DNA from: Kiritimatiellia bacterium
GTDB lineage: Bacteria > Verrucomicrobiota > Kiritimatiellia > RFP12 > UBA3636
Direction: 5' to 3'
NCBI GenBank assembly: GCA_045589455.1
Contig: JAZNPC010000066.1
Coordinates: 127,227 to 191,226, forward strand
Length of the DNA stretch: 64,000 nt
The notes under the pieces were generated by a model that did no database searches, had not been told where the DNA came from, and was given only the letters and a program-made list of their open reading frames with translations. How positions within the stretch are numbered: the stretch's first letter is position 1; each line of letters starts with the position of its first letter. Shown one piece after another: positions 10,108-46,680 of this stretch. A program made the translations under genes and the position numbers.

Positions 10108-10183
10108 GGCGAGATAGCTCAGTTGGTAGAGCAGGGGACTGAAAATCCCCGTGTCGGGGGTCCGATTCCCTCTCTCGCCACCA
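10108..10183 (+). tRNA. tRNA-Phe (anticodon GAA), with encoded CCA.
   Basis: 76-nt cloverleaf with acceptor GGCGAGA/TCTCGCC, D-arm AGCTCAGTTGGTAGAGC, anticodon loop CTGAAAA and T-arm GGGGGTCCGATTCCC, ending ACCA. Confidence 0.9.
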
Positions 10184-10219: not shown

Positions 10220-10584
10220 GTTTTTATAAGTTCTTTTTTTCGCTGTTAAATTTAATTTCAAAAACTTTATTCCTTGTTGTATCCAAATATGGTGTAGTAT
10301 GCAAAAGTAAATGCAACTTTGCACGACTAAATGCACCTTTTCCCATAGAAAACTTTGTGTTTTTACTAAAACCCCTTACTTTTAAAATATTTATGCAACT
10401 CTAATCCCTATCGCACGACTAAACGCACCAAAACAGGTGCATTTAGTTTTGCAAATAACATTCTAAGAATTTGGGACTTTTATGTTTTCTTTTCTGTTTA
10501 CAAATATTTTTTTGTTATGTAGAATGTAAGTCAACAGAGAACATCATACATAATCAGTTGAATAATACATAAGAGAGTTAGACG

Positions 10585-11655
10585 ATGAATAAAAATGCAG
10601 AAATCGTTCCTTGTATGTTAAAAAAGGGAACAGAACCTACGACGAATAAAGTATGTCGCAGACCACAACTTAGGAATAATAGAATAAATTATCAGTTTGG
10701 GTGGTTTTTTGTTACATTCCAGGTGACAGAGAATAAGAGTGAACTAGGTGCGATAGTTGGTGAAAAATGTGTGTTGAATGCACTTGGGGAAGCTGTTGTA
10801 TCACTCATTAAATCATTGCAGCAATATAATCCTGAGGTTTTTGTAGATTCTTTTGTTGTGATGCCAAATCATGTTCATTTAATTTTAAAAATAGAGAATA
10901 AACTTAGTAATGGTGAGCGGCATCTCAGTAAAATTATCGGCAAGCTTAAAAGCCTTGCTGCGTATGAATATCGTTTGCTTAGAAATAATGGGTTGGCACG
11001 TGATATTGGTACAAGTCTTTGGCAAGAGAATTATTGGGAGAAGATAATCTCTTCGTATAAGCAACTTGATGCGATTCGTGTTTATGTGGAGAATAATCCT
11101 AAGTGTTGGTCCATGGATAGATTTGGTCCAGTGACAGCATATTATCTGGGAAATATAGAGCTGTTAAATAAGCCATTCGTTGCTTTTGTGGCGAGTCAGG
11201 AATCAAGAGCTGATGAGCCTGTGTTTAAGTTGGAGCGGAGGCGTGGGACGAGGCGGGGGGCGACGCCCCCGCACCCCGAGAAAATAGATTTTTTGCATTT
11301 AGGGGAAATGGATACTTTGCAGTTGGAGGAATCTTTTTCAGGGGTGTTGGCTCCTGTTATTTCTACTTTTACCAGTCCTCAAGAGCGAGCTGTTCTACGG
11401 CGTATAATAATGAAGAAACGTCGTTTTATAGCAGTTTATCCAGGTGGTTTGCCAACAGTTTTGCCACTAGAGATTGCTGCCTGTGTTAAGTCAGGTATTG
11501 CACTTTTGCTATCTCCGGTTGAATCAGGCACAGGTATCAATAAGCAACGTGCAATTTGGTGTAATGAATATGTAGTTCGCCGTGCAAAAGAGGTGTGGTG
11601 TGGTTATATCAAGCCAGGAGGCACATTAGAATCAATTTTGAAAGCTCTAATGTAA
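10585..11655 (+). CDS. HuH Y1-type (IS200/RAYT-like) transposase homologue fused to a C-terminal DprA-like domain.
   Basis: The N-terminal ~180 aa carry the HuH motif MPNHVHLIL and the catalytic-tyrosine helix SLWQENYWEKII...AIRVYVENNP typical of IS200/REP-associated tyrosine transposases. The C-terminal ~170 aa show a weak DprA-like pattern (FVAFVASQES..., RFIAVYPGG..., LLSPVESGTG..., EVWCGYIKPGG). A GC-rich REP-like palindrome is embedded in the linker. Confidence 0.7.
   Translation: MNKNAEIVPCMLKKGTEPTTNKVCRRPQLRNNRINYQFGWFFVTFQVTENKSELGAIVGEKCVLNALGEAVVSLIKSLQQYNPEVFVDSFVVMPNHVHLILKIENKLSNGERHLSKIIGKLKSLAAYEYRLLRNNGLARDIGTSLWQENYWEKIISSYKQLDAIRVYVENNPKCWSMDRFGPVTAYYLGNIELLNKPFVAFVASQESRADEPVFKLERRRGTRRGATPPHPEKIDFLHLGEMDTLQLEESFSGVLAPVISTFTSPQERAVLRRIIMKKRRFIAVYPGGLPTVLPLEIAACVKSGIALLLSPVESGTGINKQRAIWCNEYVVRRAKEVWCGYIKPGGTLESILKALM
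11255..11285. repeat. GC-rich REP-like palindrome (gcggggggcgacgcccccgc) inside the CDS.
   Basis: It contains the perfect palindrome gggggcg-a-cgccccc. Its reverse-complement partner lies at 11737..11775. Confidence 0.6.
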
Positions 11656-11671
11656 TAAATTTTCTTGTGGA

Positions 11672-11739
11672 GCAAAAATTACCTCACTCAAGTTTATCTC
11701 GGGGTGCAAAAATTGCCTCACTCAAGTTTATCTTGGGGT
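11672..11739 (+). repeat. Tandem direct repeat, 2 x 34 nt (gcaaaaatt[a/g]cctcactcaagtttatct[c/t]ggggt).
   Basis: Two adjacent near-identical copies lie immediately 3' of the HuH-fusion gene, followed by the second GC palindrome. Confidence 0.7.
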
Positions 11740-11775
11740 GCGGGGGCGTCGTCCCCCGCCTTTCCCGCCTTCCCC
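11737..11775. repeat. GC-rich REP-like palindrome (gggtgcgggggcgtcgtcccccgcc), inverted copy of 11255..11285.
   Basis: The stem gcggggg/cccccgc is the reverse complement of the intragenic copy and is flanked by a CCGCC-rich tail. Confidence 0.6.
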
Positions 11776-11840
11776 GCCTCGGATGCGCCCAGATAGTTGG
11801 AGACTGTTGTATGTTGTATTGTTTTCCAAAATGTGAATAA

Positions 11841-11932
11841 TTTCCCCTAATCGCCAAAATCAAGATTAGGGGAAATTTTTTTAAGCCATAAAAAATTTCC
11901 CCTAAATTCAAAAAACGACTTTAGGGGAAATT
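11841..11932. repeat. Two tandem hairpins sharing the stem tttcccctaa/ttaggggaaa.
   Basis: Hairpin 1 is tttcccctaatcgccaaaatcaagattaggggaaa. Hairpin 2 is atttcccctaaattcaaaaaacgactttaggggaaat. Both are followed by T-runs. Confidence 0.55.
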
Positions 11933-11993
11933 TTATTGTTGTATTACCATGCGTAATTTTGTTATATTAAATGCTATAAAAAGGAGTATGGTC

Positions 11994-13424
11994 ATGTTTA
12001 TTGGTAGAGAAAATGCTTTGGATCAGTTAAATGCGCTGTTGCAAAAACAAACCGCATCGCTTGTTACTTGTAGAGGACGTCGACGAATCGGTAAGAGTAC
12101 TCTTATTGAGGTTTTTGCAGAACGCTCTAAAAGCAGATTTATTAAATTAGAGGGGCGTCGTCCAGAAAAAGGACTAACTAACAATGACGAACTTGCTACT
12201 TTTGCTAAACAACTTGCTAACCAAACATCGATAGAATCAACACCTCCATCCAACTGGTTGGATGCGTTTAGAAGAATTGATTCACAAATAAATGATTCTG
12301 AGCGCACAGTTGTCTTGCTCGATGAGGTATCGTGGATGGCATATTATGACAAAAGTTTTGCCTCTGACCTTAAAATGGCTTGGGATAATTTATTCAAAAA
12401 ACATAAAAAATTAATTTTTGTTGTTTGTGGTAGTGTCTCAACATGGATACGAGAAAATATTGTAGATAATGGTGCTTTCTTGGGAAGACGCTCCTTGGAT
12501 ATCGTTCTTAAAGAATTACCAATTTCAGATTGTGTTAAGTTTTGGGGTAAAGCAGCTTCGCGTATAGATGAAAGAGAAATTATAGATGTTCTTTCTGTCA
12601 CAGGCGGTGTTCCTAGATATCTAGAGGAGATAAATCCTTCGCTTTCAGCTTTTGAAAATATTAGACGTCTTTGTTTTATGCCTAATAGTATTCTAAGAAC
12701 AGATTTTGACGAAATGTTTAATGATGTCATAAGTAAAGAACAAGACTTTTCTGCTCAAGTTCTTAGATGTTTAGCGGATGGTTCTAAAACGGGTACGGAA
12801 ATTTCTAAAATGCTTCGAGTAGATAAGGGAGGTAGAGTTTCTGCTGCGTTAAGACGATTAGAAGAAGCAGGGCTTGTTTCTAGTGATGTATCTATCAATC
12901 CTGAGACAGGAAAACCATCAAGAGAAATTCGCTTTCGTTTAAGAGATAATTATTCTAGGTTTTATATAAAATATATAGAACCAATGAAAAGAATTATTGA
13001 TGATGGTGCATTTGATTGTGTTTCTTTAGAAGCATTAGAAGGAATAGAAACCGTACTAGGTTTAGCATTTGAAAATTTAGTAGTTAATAATTATAGAGAG
13101 CTAATCCCACTAATCAATTTAAAAGGGACTTTGGTTACATCTGCTGCACCATATAGACGTGTTGGTGGAAGCAAAAAAGGATGTCAAATAGATTTGCTTA
13201 TACAAACAAGAAGAACCATTTGTGTCGTTGAGATAAAGCGACGTCAAGAAATTGGCAGAGAAATAATAAATGAGGTAGACAATAAAATAAGAGCGATAGA
13301 ACGCCCTTCTGGAGTTTCGGCAAGGGCTGCACTTGTTTATTTAGGTCATCTTTCTCCAGTTGTTGAGGCCGATGGATATTTTGATTCGATTATTCATTTT
13401 AGAAAAGTACTTGGATTATCCTGA
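11994..13424 (+). CDS. ATP-binding protein of the archaeal-type ATPase family (PF01637-like with a DUF234-like C-terminus), STAND-like.
   Basis: The N-terminus FIGRENALDQL...GRRRIGKSTL has a Walker A motif, a Walker B motif (VVLLDEVSWM) and a C-terminal winged-helix-like region. ATG at 11994 lies 7 nt after AAGGAG; upstream ATGs at 11949 and 11988 have poorer spacing. Confidence 0.7.
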   Translation: MFIGRENALDQLNALLQKQTASLVTCRGRRRIGKSTLIEVFAERSKSRFIKLEGRRPEKGLTNNDELATFAKQLANQTSIESTPPSNWLDAFRRIDSQINDSERTVVLLDEVSWMAYYDKSFASDLKMAWDNLFKKHKKLIFVVCGSVSTWIRENIVDNGAFLGRRSLDIVLKELPISDCVKFWGKAASRIDEREIIDVLSVTGGVPRYLEEINPSLSAFENIRRLCFMPNSILRTDFDEMFNDVISKEQDFSAQVLRCLADGSKTGTEISKMLRVDKGGRVSAALRRLEEAGLVSSDVSINPETGKPSREIRFRLRDNYSRFYIKYIEPMKRIIDDGAFDCVSLEALEGIETVLGLAFENLVVNNYRELIPLINLKGTLVTSAAPYRRVGGSKKGCQIDLLIQTRRTICVVEIKRRQEIGREIINEVDNKIRAIERPSGVSARAALVYLGHLSPVVEADGYFDSIIHFRKVLGLS

Positions 13425-13490
13425 TTTTTTATTGATTTTATTATAGATATTGGGAGTATAGATTATCAAATTGCTTTAAAGGAATAGCCT

Positions 13491-14521: not shown

Positions 14522-15064
14522 ATGACCATTTTTGAGAAAACACCTAGATTTTGTAAGCTGACAATTTCAAGCACAAGCAGTGTGACAGCAAAAACCTATT
14601 CAATAGTAGCCTTCAATGTTTTTGCTTTTGTATTTGGACAGCTATTAGCATTTGCAGGAGTGTTTTTAATTTTTATTGCAGCATTTATTGGTAAGCCGAT
14701 TTCTGATGTTATATTTTATGTGATTGCACTCATGCTGATTTCAACATTGTTTGGGCTTTATTTTATGTATTGCTTGCTCTTTAGTCCATCCATATCTTTT
14801 GATATGTTGAGAGGGACATTTTCTGTAAAGGGTAAGGGCTTTTTATCAAAGAAGCTTGTAGAAGGAAAGCTTTCTGAGGTTGAAGCAGTTCAAGTTGTGC
14901 CTGTATATATTGATAGCGTTGATTTAGCAACACCTTGGTATTCTATAACGCTTTCGGTATTGCAGCAAGAGGATATTACAATTTGTAGCTTTAAAAATAA
15001 ACATTCTGCAGAGAAGCTTGCAAGAAAGCTTGCAAGGAAGCTTGGCATACAATTATCTTGTTAA
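14522..15064 (+). CDS. Hypothetical small membrane protein.
   Basis: Two predicted TM helices plus a soluble tail. ATG at 14522 is preceded by GGAG; the ORF-track start at 14507 is a TTG. Confidence 0.4.
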   Translation: MTIFEKTPRFCKLTISSTSSVTAKTYSIVAFNVFAFVFGQLLAFAGVFLIFIAAFIGKPISDVIFYVIALMLISTLFGLYFMYCLLFSPSISFDMLRGTFSVKGKGFLSKKLVEGKLSEVEAVQVVPVYIDSVDLATPWYSITLSVLQQEDITICSFKNKHSAEKLARKLARKLGIQLSC

Positions 15065-45999: not shown

Positions 46000-46680
46000 A
46001 AAAGTGCACATTTCAAGAACACGGACACACGGATGGGGTTTTTGGGGGTGCTTGTGTGATGGCTAGGCGTGCGAGGATTGGCGTGCGGGGCACGCGAGTG
46101 CGCTCTCGCGCAGGAACAGGATTGGCAGGATTATGCAGGATGGTCATGATTGCTTGGGTGTGTGCGTAGCGCACGACACTAGCGCTTGACGTTGGACATG
46201 GTCTTGCTCTCGTTGTCGCAAGGCCAACTTACAAGCGCTAGTGTGGGGGCAACCCATGTGCTTGTGTGGTGTTTCTTTTGACAGGATTAACTGGATTTGT
46301 GCGGATGCTGGGCTGGTGTGCTATAGGATTCAAGACACTAGCGCTTGTTGTTGCCTTAATTATTGCAAAATCTATGAAGCAATAAGGCACCATCCAAGCG
46401 CCAGTGTTTTGGATGCACCAAGCTTGGTTGTGCGCTGCGCCGCGTGCGGCGCAGTTTGAGCGTAGCGTATGTGCAAAACTCTCTCGCACCAGAGCGGGCA
46501 CTGAGCACTGCGAGACACAAAATGCTCTTGCATTTTTGGCTCGCGCCAGACAAAACGATGGAGGAGCCCTGTCACTATTGTTCTCGGCACCTCCATCAAC
46601 CGAAAGGAGTGGCGCGCGGCTTACCACACTGCCAATTGTGGCAAAACTCTTAAGACTGCTATTAATGAACTAGCATCGTA
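46000..46680. repeat. GC-rich non-coding repeat block of the 'CACGGAT / GGCTAGGCGTGCGAGGAT / GTGTGGGGGCAACCCATGTGCTTGTGTG' family.
   Basis: It shares a 26-nt exact match and several other modules with 52128..52440. It is GC-rich in an AT-rich genome. All ORFs in it are short, overlapping and of low complexity. Confidence 0.7.

Follow-up and report, generated by a model that had tools for sequence, protein, structure and literature searches.

The TnpA-Y1 proteins have been divided into subclasses (Quentin, Siguier, Chandler & Fichant 2018, PMC6006769), and the tyrosine signature Y---NP defines class 2 among them (PMC6006769). Subclass 2.4, which corresponds to group 4 of Bertels, carries the motifs NH[IFV]H, WQ and YIxNNP in proteins with a median length of about 194 amino acids (aa) and no tail domain; a hallmark of this subclass is the in-frame insertion of repetitive extragenic palindromic (REP) sequences into the tnpA-REP genes, and its REPs have a GT[AG]G foot (PMC6006769). 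E. coli TnpA-REP binds one REP strand, requires the 5' tetranucleotide and cuts beside the hairpin (PMC8266576). The DprA-like protein ShosA binds DNA in its single-stranded form (ssDNA), and DprA loads RecA, as summarized in the same paper (PMC11961720). The host function of REP-associated transposases (RAYTs) and the spread of REPs are still unsettled. To our knowledge, all characterized RAYTs are small stand-alone nucleases. Here, we analyzed a 64-kb stretch of DNA from a gut bacterium of the class Kiritimatiellia (contig JAZNPC010000066.1, positions 127,227 to 191,226; hereafter the window), in which an open reading frame (ORF) of 356 aa at 10585..11655 on the plus strand encodes a Y1 HuH transposase fused to a DprA-like domain.

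The locus is probably of the REPtron type, that is, a vertically inherited, approximately single-copy class 2 TnpA-Y1 REP-associated transposase together with its cognate REP hairpins. It is unusual because the Kiritimatiellia nuclease of the HuH/Y1 type carries a permanent fusion to a DprA-type Rossmann domain that is truncated and divergent. What is new is this conserved DprA-like fusion, a REP-derived in-frame minisatellite that replaces a helix of the domain, and natural alleles from which the domain is deleted. A REP within the ORF, which an earlier reading of the letters alone (the sequence-only reading) had described, is not new, being already known as a trait of related RAYTs and as the published hallmark of subclass 2.4 (PMC6006769). 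That reading had correctly placed the ORF, the HuH and Tyr motifs, the palindromes, a 2 x 34-nt tandem repeat and two hairpins. Its statement that the fusion is uncharacterized also agrees with the literature searched, PMC6006769 included, in which no description of a DprA-like domain fused to a RAYT was found. REP/RAYT systems are also extended to Kiritimatiellia, for which none is described in the papers searched.

The two-domain protein and its age

Several lines of evidence support the assignment of the N-terminal half to the Y1/HuH transposases of the RAYT kind, as had been proposed from the sequence. The Pfam model Y1_Tnp (PF01797) matches aa 82-171 with 37.1 bits (cut-off 23; E 3.9e-9), within a TnpA-REP-like catalytic domain that spans aa ~30-178 (10672..11118, plus strand). 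The HuH motif, His96-Val97-His98 (10870..10878, plus strand), lies in MPNHVH, which starts at 10861; in an alignment of 96 sequences, M93, P94, N95 and H98 are invariant and H96 is nearly so, and in distant loci the motif reads H[VFA]H. Tyr167 (TAT, 11083..11085, plus strand), in the Y-V-E-N-N-P helix of IRVYVENNP, is likewise invariant in these 96 sequences, aligns with the tyrosine of 'QKYIES' in ISDra2 TnpA and is presumed to be the catalytic residue. Tyr150 of WQENYW (start 11020) was considered for this role and rejected, as it is replaced by Phe in several distant members whereas Tyr167 is invariant and aligned with the ISDra2 tyrosine. The class 2 signature Y---NP is present as YVENNP, and NHVH, WQ and YVENNP together make up the motif signature of subclass 2.4. 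An AlphaFold2 model built from the 96 sequences (mean predicted local distance difference test, pLDDT, 80.5; predicted template modeling score, pTM, 0.72) gives the N-terminal domain a TnpA fold and the C-terminal domain the Rossmann fold of DprA, with disorder only at aa 1-29 and 219-253, the latter stretch having a pLDDT below 50.

The DprA-like nature of the C-terminal ~170 aa, also proposed from the sequence, is supported by a less direct route. A Pfam search of the window protein gave no match to DNA_processg_A (PF02481), and relatives from which the insert had been removed gave a faint signal of 11-13 bits against a cut-off of 29.6; homology was therefore established through structure and intermediate sequences. 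A phmmer search with aa 176-356 against 1.84 billion representatives returned 116 proteins only, one of which (P0222, E 1e-4) passes the PF02481 cut-off with 44 bits. A profile including such intermediates matches Streptococcus pneumoniae DprA (3uqz) with E 1e-4 and pairs GN.eLL..p.vAFvASQ with GNLDLLKFPKVAVVGSR of DprA. The fold begins at about aa 181, ahead of the palindrome, with a first strand and helix (GNIELLNKPFVAFVASQ; aa 181-216, 11125..11232, plus strand). It is then interrupted by a hypervariable in-frame insert (aa 217-255, 11233..11349, plus strand) at the position of DprA helix α1 and resumes with the rest of the Rossmann domain (aa 256-356, 11350..11652, plus strand), which contains STFTSPQER, YPGG, LLLSP, NKQRAIWCN and PGGTL. 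The AlphaFold2 model places the strand before the insert within the C-terminal fold, and P0222, a bona fide relative in the DprA family, has helix α1 where the window protein has the variable stretch. Thus, the stretch is an insertion inside the domain, after its first strand, and not the palindrome-encoded linker between domains that the sequence-only reading had seen in it.

Two further observations concern this half of the protein. A second and more distant fusion family (P0194, P0213, P0232 and P0234; ~330-380 aa) also combines Y1_Tnp with a DprA-like domain; its HuH motif reads HGVVR or HGIVR, it keeps an A-S-R motif, and P0194 matches the PADLOC model PsyrA (E 6e-10). Additionally, the giant proteins P0177, P0189 and P0219 (2,078-5,636 aa) each have 5-8 separate stretches that match the window protein at aa 244-275, where the insert ends and the STFTS strand starts.

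The fusion is widespread and old. A search of 5.8 billion proteins identified 817 homologues, of which the best 120 cover 84-100% of the query (mostly ~95%) at 56-97% identity and are 293-429 aa long; NCBI also has a record of an identical 356-aa protein, from a contig of 230 kb. A scan that covered one genome per species, used short peptide patterns as seeds and was conducted on metagenome-assembled genomes (MAGs) yielded 36 loci from 35 assemblies; at about one copy per genome, the number is low, unlike that of IS200. The loci are nearly all MAGs labelled Kiritimatiellia, Kiritimatiellae or related PVC groups from rumen, gut and digester samples, and over 100 metagenome protein clusters also contain the fused protein. 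Down to 37% identity, the two conserved blocks are retained together with the catalytic residues. Public records name the protein just 'transposase' or 'RayT'. Since the GC content of the gene follows that of its genome from 0.40 to 0.67 (r = 0.87), a long residence in each lineage is indicated; together with the single copy, this host-like composition supports the earlier impression that the gene is domesticated. The sequence-only reading had further proposed that an absorbed REP created the fusion. This does not agree with the occurrence of the two-domain protein at 37-97% identity across Kiritimatiellia, including members without a REP at that position; the REP was inserted later, into a permissive loop of an existing fusion.

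The palindromes as a REP family

The two GC-rich palindromes of the window are oriented against each other. REP copy A lies inside the ORF on the minus strand (11251..11284), consists of the foot TTTTCTCGGGGT and the hairpin GCGGGGG-CGTCGC-CCCCCGC, and has no mismatch to the family core; REP copy B, with foot TTATCTTGGGGT and hairpin, lies 80 nt past the stop codon on the plus strand (11728..11761) and has one mismatch. In the coding strand, the palindrome gcggggggcgacgcccccgc at 11253-11272 codes for ...RRGATPPHPEK, and its inverted partner is found at 11735-11759. The arms of the inverted repeat are 34 nt long, 91% complementary and 443 nt apart; the repeat reaches past the palindrome into the asymmetric foot and the tandem units, with further complementary pieces beyond the arms. 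The insert at aa 217-255 is itself composed of REP parts, in which the hairpin is accompanied by 12-nt 'RRGT' units and 24-nt 'DFPHPEKx' foot units. A degenerate palindrome pattern finds these two sites only in the 64 kb, against 0 expected from 100 shuffles, and the two palindromes account for two of the four GC-rich segments of the window, whose GC content is 39.6%. The sole GC-rich stretch besides, which is intergenic (46020-46500), has four ACACTAGCGCTTG-like motifs in both orientations and the palindrome GTGCGCTGCGCCGCGTGCGGCGCAG; it bears no relation to the REP family.

To characterize the family, 82 instances were collected from L001-L009, the clade nearest the window, and from 17 metagenome contigs matching the exact pattern. 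The consensus, (A/T)TCTYGGGG(T/C/A)-GCGRGGS-CGTYGY-SCCYCGC, is polar in that just one of its sides has a conserved foot. Compensatory changes, for example from G-C to A-T or to C-G, maintain its 7-bp stem: 97.5% of the cells are paired, 43 cells are changed on both sides, none of 500 shuffles reaches this level, and slid controls show ~57% pairing. The REP core is nearly identical in genomes of 40% and 65% GC, whose proteins are 56% identical. In low-GC relatives, the gene holds the only GC-rich segments within 14-21 kb, and hairpin REPs lie within ~1 kb of the gene in the window and in L001-L009. In the window, REPs occupy the place of helix α1 in the DprA-like fold as well as the 3' flank, and relatives also have REPs in the β3-αC loop, the αC-β4 loop and at both ends of the protein. 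In more distant clades of the gene, these loops hold GC-rich repeats of other kinds. These results support the view that the palindromes behave as REPs associated with this gene. The earlier proposal of REPs around a RAYT thus stands with respect to a polar family tied to the gene, but not with respect to a compact REPIN arrangement, given the 443 nt between the copies; compact inverted doublets are found in relatives (L008 6648-6708, L009 6342-6402) and on L048 (9147-9206), and in L005-L009, REP pairs lie side by side inside the insert.

The element is also found away from the gene. In the 17 contigs, which come from the Joint Genome Institute (JGI) metagenomes, the gene is present at the match in seven and absent from the stretch in ten; in these ten, the element forms tandem arrays or lies in frame within other genes, where it gives peptides such as AGGDAPAPR and SGCGGVAPR. 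Confinement of the palindrome to two sites, which the sequence-only reading had regarded as speaking against a REP, therefore holds inside the 64-kb window but not in related genomes and metagenomes. Copies within other ORFs were located at L041 1178-1202 and 3515-3539, L051 1060-1084 and 1698-1722, L045 1444-1528 and L048 9147-9206, and the genes in which in-frame REPs leave the frame intact encode a Mu-like head maturation protease and a Mu F-like minor head protein, as well as a 2-hydroxyacid dehydrogenase and a large GH42-like protein. Among the ten gene-free contigs, two are head modules of Mu-like prophages. In viral contigs, the strict REP pattern gave no match; of the copies found with a looser one, that in L055 is convincing and that in L054 doubtful.

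By analogy with E. coli TnpA-REP, the Y1 domain would recognize the REP as a folded hairpin in ssDNA together with the conserved 5' foot, and the strand would be cut and rejoined through a metal bound by His96/His98 and through Tyr167. The DprA-like module may add ssDNA binding, and possibly oligomerization or contact with recombination proteins. The REPs have colonized permissive loops of the gene and its 3' flank, where they behave as unstable repeats. The analysis shows the two folds, the conservation of the catalytic residues, the fusion's age, the structure and conservation of the REP and its concentration at this gene, and the allelic instability; we infer REP cleavage by the protein, ssDNA binding by its DprA-like part and any role of the enzyme in the rearrangements described below.

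Several observations weigh against a REPtron-type locus with these activities. The NCBIfam model REP_Tyr_transpos (NF047646) scores 50.5 bits, which is under its cut-off of 80, and the four bases 5' of the stem read GGG[T/C/A] instead of the canonical GT[AG]G foot. The REP copy number appears to be low, with two copies in the 64-kb window, only 17 exact-pattern contigs in the whole JGI collection, and essentially no dispersal by shared 14-mers within 10 kb on either side of 33 loci, apart from L009, where a dispersed copy lies at 14580; classical REP dispersal is accordingly not shown. The DprA-like half has no helix α1 and lacks both the last strands and the accessory domains. The G-[STA]-R motif after strand β1 of DprA, known from Helicobacter pylori DprA as its ssDNA-binding motif, reads A-S-Q in the window protein and A-S-E/D in relatives, A-S-R being kept only in the distant Y1-DprA-like fusion family. 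Given the lost arginine, the missing helix α1 and the early end of the domain, DNA binding like that of DprA is not assured. Moreover, the junction of the deletion alleles lies in a 7-nt microhomology, so replication slippage fits and an enzyme is not needed.

Allelic instability and alternative explanations

The gene is unstable at its REPs. Strains with flanks at ~95-98% identity to those of the window carry different numbers of whole units in the insert, and at least 12 length alleles of 344-377 aa, all from one species, were found in clusters at 90% identity or more. Two arrays account for the variation in length: one side of the hairpin has a 12-nt unit (RRGT; hairpin arm plus loop), and the other has a 24-nt unit (DFPHPEKx; foot plus half stem). 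The array past the stop codon is also variable. Arrays of a foot plus half stem recur at unrelated sites (L039, L046 and L050). Furthermore, deletion alleles of 230 or 255 aa occur in five assemblies (L056-L060; one 19-kb MEGAHIT contig and four Logan contigs) from two strain backgrounds. In these, the whole segment between the REPs is gone, including the part of the DprA-like domain that follows the REP, and a single hybrid hairpin leads directly to the esterase gene. The junction falls within the 7-nt GCGGGGG that both palindromes have on the same strand; because the two REPs have no long same-strand word in common, the deletion is not an assembly artefact, and slippage that crosses a large stem-loop at its base would fit it.

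An inversion allele is possible but unproven. The predicted inverted arrangement keeps both reading frames open, and L062 (660-1029), a single 1-kb Logan contig, shows the inter-REP segment inverted relative to the N-terminal domain, as predicted. By hand comparison of L002 with L062, the arms share ~31 exact bases; as Logan assembles at k = 31, this inversion may be an assembly artefact. In another species (L036, 10001-10624), the part between a REP in the HuH loop and the REP in the DprA insert is missing together with the catalytic tyrosine, which reflects either a REP-to-REP deletion or an assembly collapse. Short proteins with the C-terminal domain only, and some with the N-terminal domain only, were considered as alleles and rejected as products of contig ends (confirmed for P0279 and assumed for P0274, P0269 and P0275). 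In L033 (1-2112), the frame continues past the DprA-like domain into a long downstream ORF, giving 703 aa in total, with GC-rich repeat peptides at the junction and an internal gap in the Y1 domain.

The GC-rich hairpins might be a slippage-prone minisatellite or a miniature mobile element that is independent of the enzyme and tolerated in disordered loops. Its in-frame presence in unrelated genes (those for the Mu-like head protease, the Mu F-like protein, the 2-hydroxyacid dehydrogenase and the GH42-like protein) is consistent with this, as are the departure of the foot from GT[AG]G and the unit arrays and deletion junctions, which slippage at microhomology can explain. However, the strong enrichment at the gene, which has the sole copies in 64 kb and in 14-21 kb of low-GC relatives, and the presence of the gene on seven of the 17 element-bearing metagenome contigs make passive repeats unlikely. 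Moreover, foot and stem are conserved over a 25-point GC range, different GC-rich repeats at the same loops of distant clades are expected if enzyme and REP co-evolve, and the association of REPs with their gene is established for related RAYTs. The inverted REPs might instead form a switch, in which recombination inverts or deletes the 443-nt segment and the population toggles between the fused enzyme and a stand-alone RAYT (phase variation). The 34-nt arms, 91% complementary, do flank a segment coding for most of the DprA-like domain, inversion is predicted to leave both frames open, as in the arrangement of L062, and the deletion recurs in five assemblies of two strain backgrounds with a hybrid REP at the junction. 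We nevertheless consider such phase variation quite unlikely: the inversion is known from one 1-kb Logan contig with arms of ~31 exact nt and may be artefactual, a deletion cannot be reversed and hence is no switch, only this species has the bracketing arrangement whereas L005-L009 have adjacent REP pairs in the insert, no recombinase gene lies nearby, and ~40 other assemblies show the fused orientation. A version in which the enzyme itself assists, inverting or excising the segment while the DprA-like module couples REP cleavage to ssDNA recombination, is also improbable; if it were true, the hypervariable minisatellite and the in-frame REPs of prophage head genes would have been left by this activity and not by passive slippage.

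A role in defence, which the sequence-only reading had suggested, is not supported. By analogy with the DprA-like antitoxins ShosA and PsyrA, the protein might act as an anti-phage effector, but no PADLOC model matches it, no phosphoribosyltransferase (PRTase) toxin or conserved neighbor accompanies it in the 33 loci, the adjacent PDC-S27 gene is missing from the closest strains, and a nearly single-copy gene of host-like GC is unlike the cargo of defence islands. We therefore judge this role very unlikely. That the fusion is an assembly error or a frameshift joining two genes, a caveat attached to the earlier reading, has a negligible probability. The junction is repetitive and GC-rich, as where such errors arise, but no support for one was found: the same continuous ORF recurs in independent assemblies (36 genome loci, seven metagenome loci and more than 100 protein clusters), and the model puts the strand before the insert in the C-terminal fold.

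As known relatives of the DprA-type module bind ssDNA (ShosA) and load RecA (DprA), its fusion to a RAYT throughout a lineage hints that REPs are processed on ssDNA in contact with the recombination machinery. A gene that carries its presumed substrate in frame is a compact natural experiment: as dozens of length alleles, two domain-deleting alleles of independent origin and a possible inverted allele occur in wild populations, the effect of REP instability on the protein can be read from metagenomes.

Surroundings of the gene and comparison with known systems

Upstream of the gene, a promoter-like site TTTACA-17-TAGAAT (10497..10525, plus strand) lies 60 nt 5' of the ATG; it comes from a consensus scan only, in which the number of such sites did not exceed the expectation from shuffles, and it falls within a block common to the window and strains L001 and L002. 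Similarity to these strains begins abruptly at 10460, 125 nt upstream of the ATG. Beyond this point, the window has tRNA-Phe (10108-10183) and a TPR gene where the other strains have purL, GtrA and methyltransferase genes, and the junction region (10301-10460) contains direct and inverted copies of TGCACGACTAAATGCACC. L004 likewise has a tRNA-Phe just upstream of its copy of the gene, but adjacency to a tRNA is not general, being limited to the window, L004 and L009 (tRNA-Ser).

Downstream of the ORF, two tandem 34-nt units (11660..11727, plus strand), each with a REP foot at its end (TTATCTCGGGGTGC), are 85% identical and vary in number between strains. Partial tandem copies of the 3' hairpin arm, identified by reading the sequence (TCGTCCCCCGCC / TTTCCCGCC / TTCCCCGCC; 11748..11781, plus strand), differ in copy number in L001 and L002. 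Two AT-rich hairpins with TTTCCCCTAA stems and T/A runs (11839..11880 and 11892..11934; folding z = -5.9) are probably transcription terminators, although the terminator scan did not have them among its calls and gave another pairing only in this region, an inter-hairpin stem at 11866-11905 on the minus strand. A 55-nt direct repeat duplicates the terminator-like hairpin (11836-11937); only one copy is present in L001, and the deletion allele L056 has both. The scan did not list the hairpin inside the ORF as an intrinsic terminator either, and no T-run follows directly after its stem.

The neighbors in the window are tRNA-Phe, a TPR protein, an ATPase_2 protein and a SASA esterase. No neighboring gene or operon partner is conserved across 33 loci; in one subclade, an MFS transporter gene lies downstream. 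The next gene of the window (11949-13424, probable start 11994) encodes an ATPase_2 and winged-helix protein matching PADLOC PDC-S27 (E 1e-77). This gene (~11969-13456) is wholly absent from the near-identical L001, L002, L056 and L057, in which the esterase gene directly follows the REP and hairpin cluster.

Compared with known systems, the locus is most like subclass 2.4, with which it has in common the motif signature, a low copy number, REP hairpins within 1 kb on either side and in-frame REPs inside the gene, notably at β3-αC (relatives L008, L009 and P0018). An insertion of the subclass 2.4 type is present in L004, L008, L009, P0018, P0077 and P0095, and the window copy has none at that site. 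It differs in that the protein has 356 aa with a DprA-like domain of ~170 aa, the REP foot is TCTYGGGG[T/C/A], REP copies are apparently few, and the hosts are Kiritimatiellia here as against Cyanobacteria and Bacteroidetes; the likeness is judged by motifs and gene features. E. coli TnpA-REP (RayT/YafM, PDB 4er8), in contrast, is a stand-alone protein of 165 aa whose REPs lie outside the ORF and have a GTAG foot and a bulged stem. E. coli REPs number hundreds per genome. With respect to DprA/Smf (DNA_processg_A; PDB 3uqz, 4ljk and 3maj) and ShosA (8zva), a Pfam-level match is missing here, the GSR arginine is lost (ASQ/E/D), and a variable loop derived from the REP stands in for helix α1. The domain further lacks the last strands and the SAM and DML1 accessory domains, is fused to a nuclease and has no competence or toxin context. 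Unlike ShosTA and PsyrTA, the gene has no adjacent phosphoribosyltransferase toxin and no PADLOC match. Unlike in a REPIN, the two copies of the window are separated by a 443-nt spacer and do not constitute a short-spacer doublet forming one long hairpin. Rickettsia palindromic elements are inserted in frame at permissive surface positions, measure ~100-150 bp and have no cognate HuH enzyme. The REPs described here are likewise short in-frame palindromes, but they measure ~35 nt and are concentrated in the gene of their presumed enzyme.

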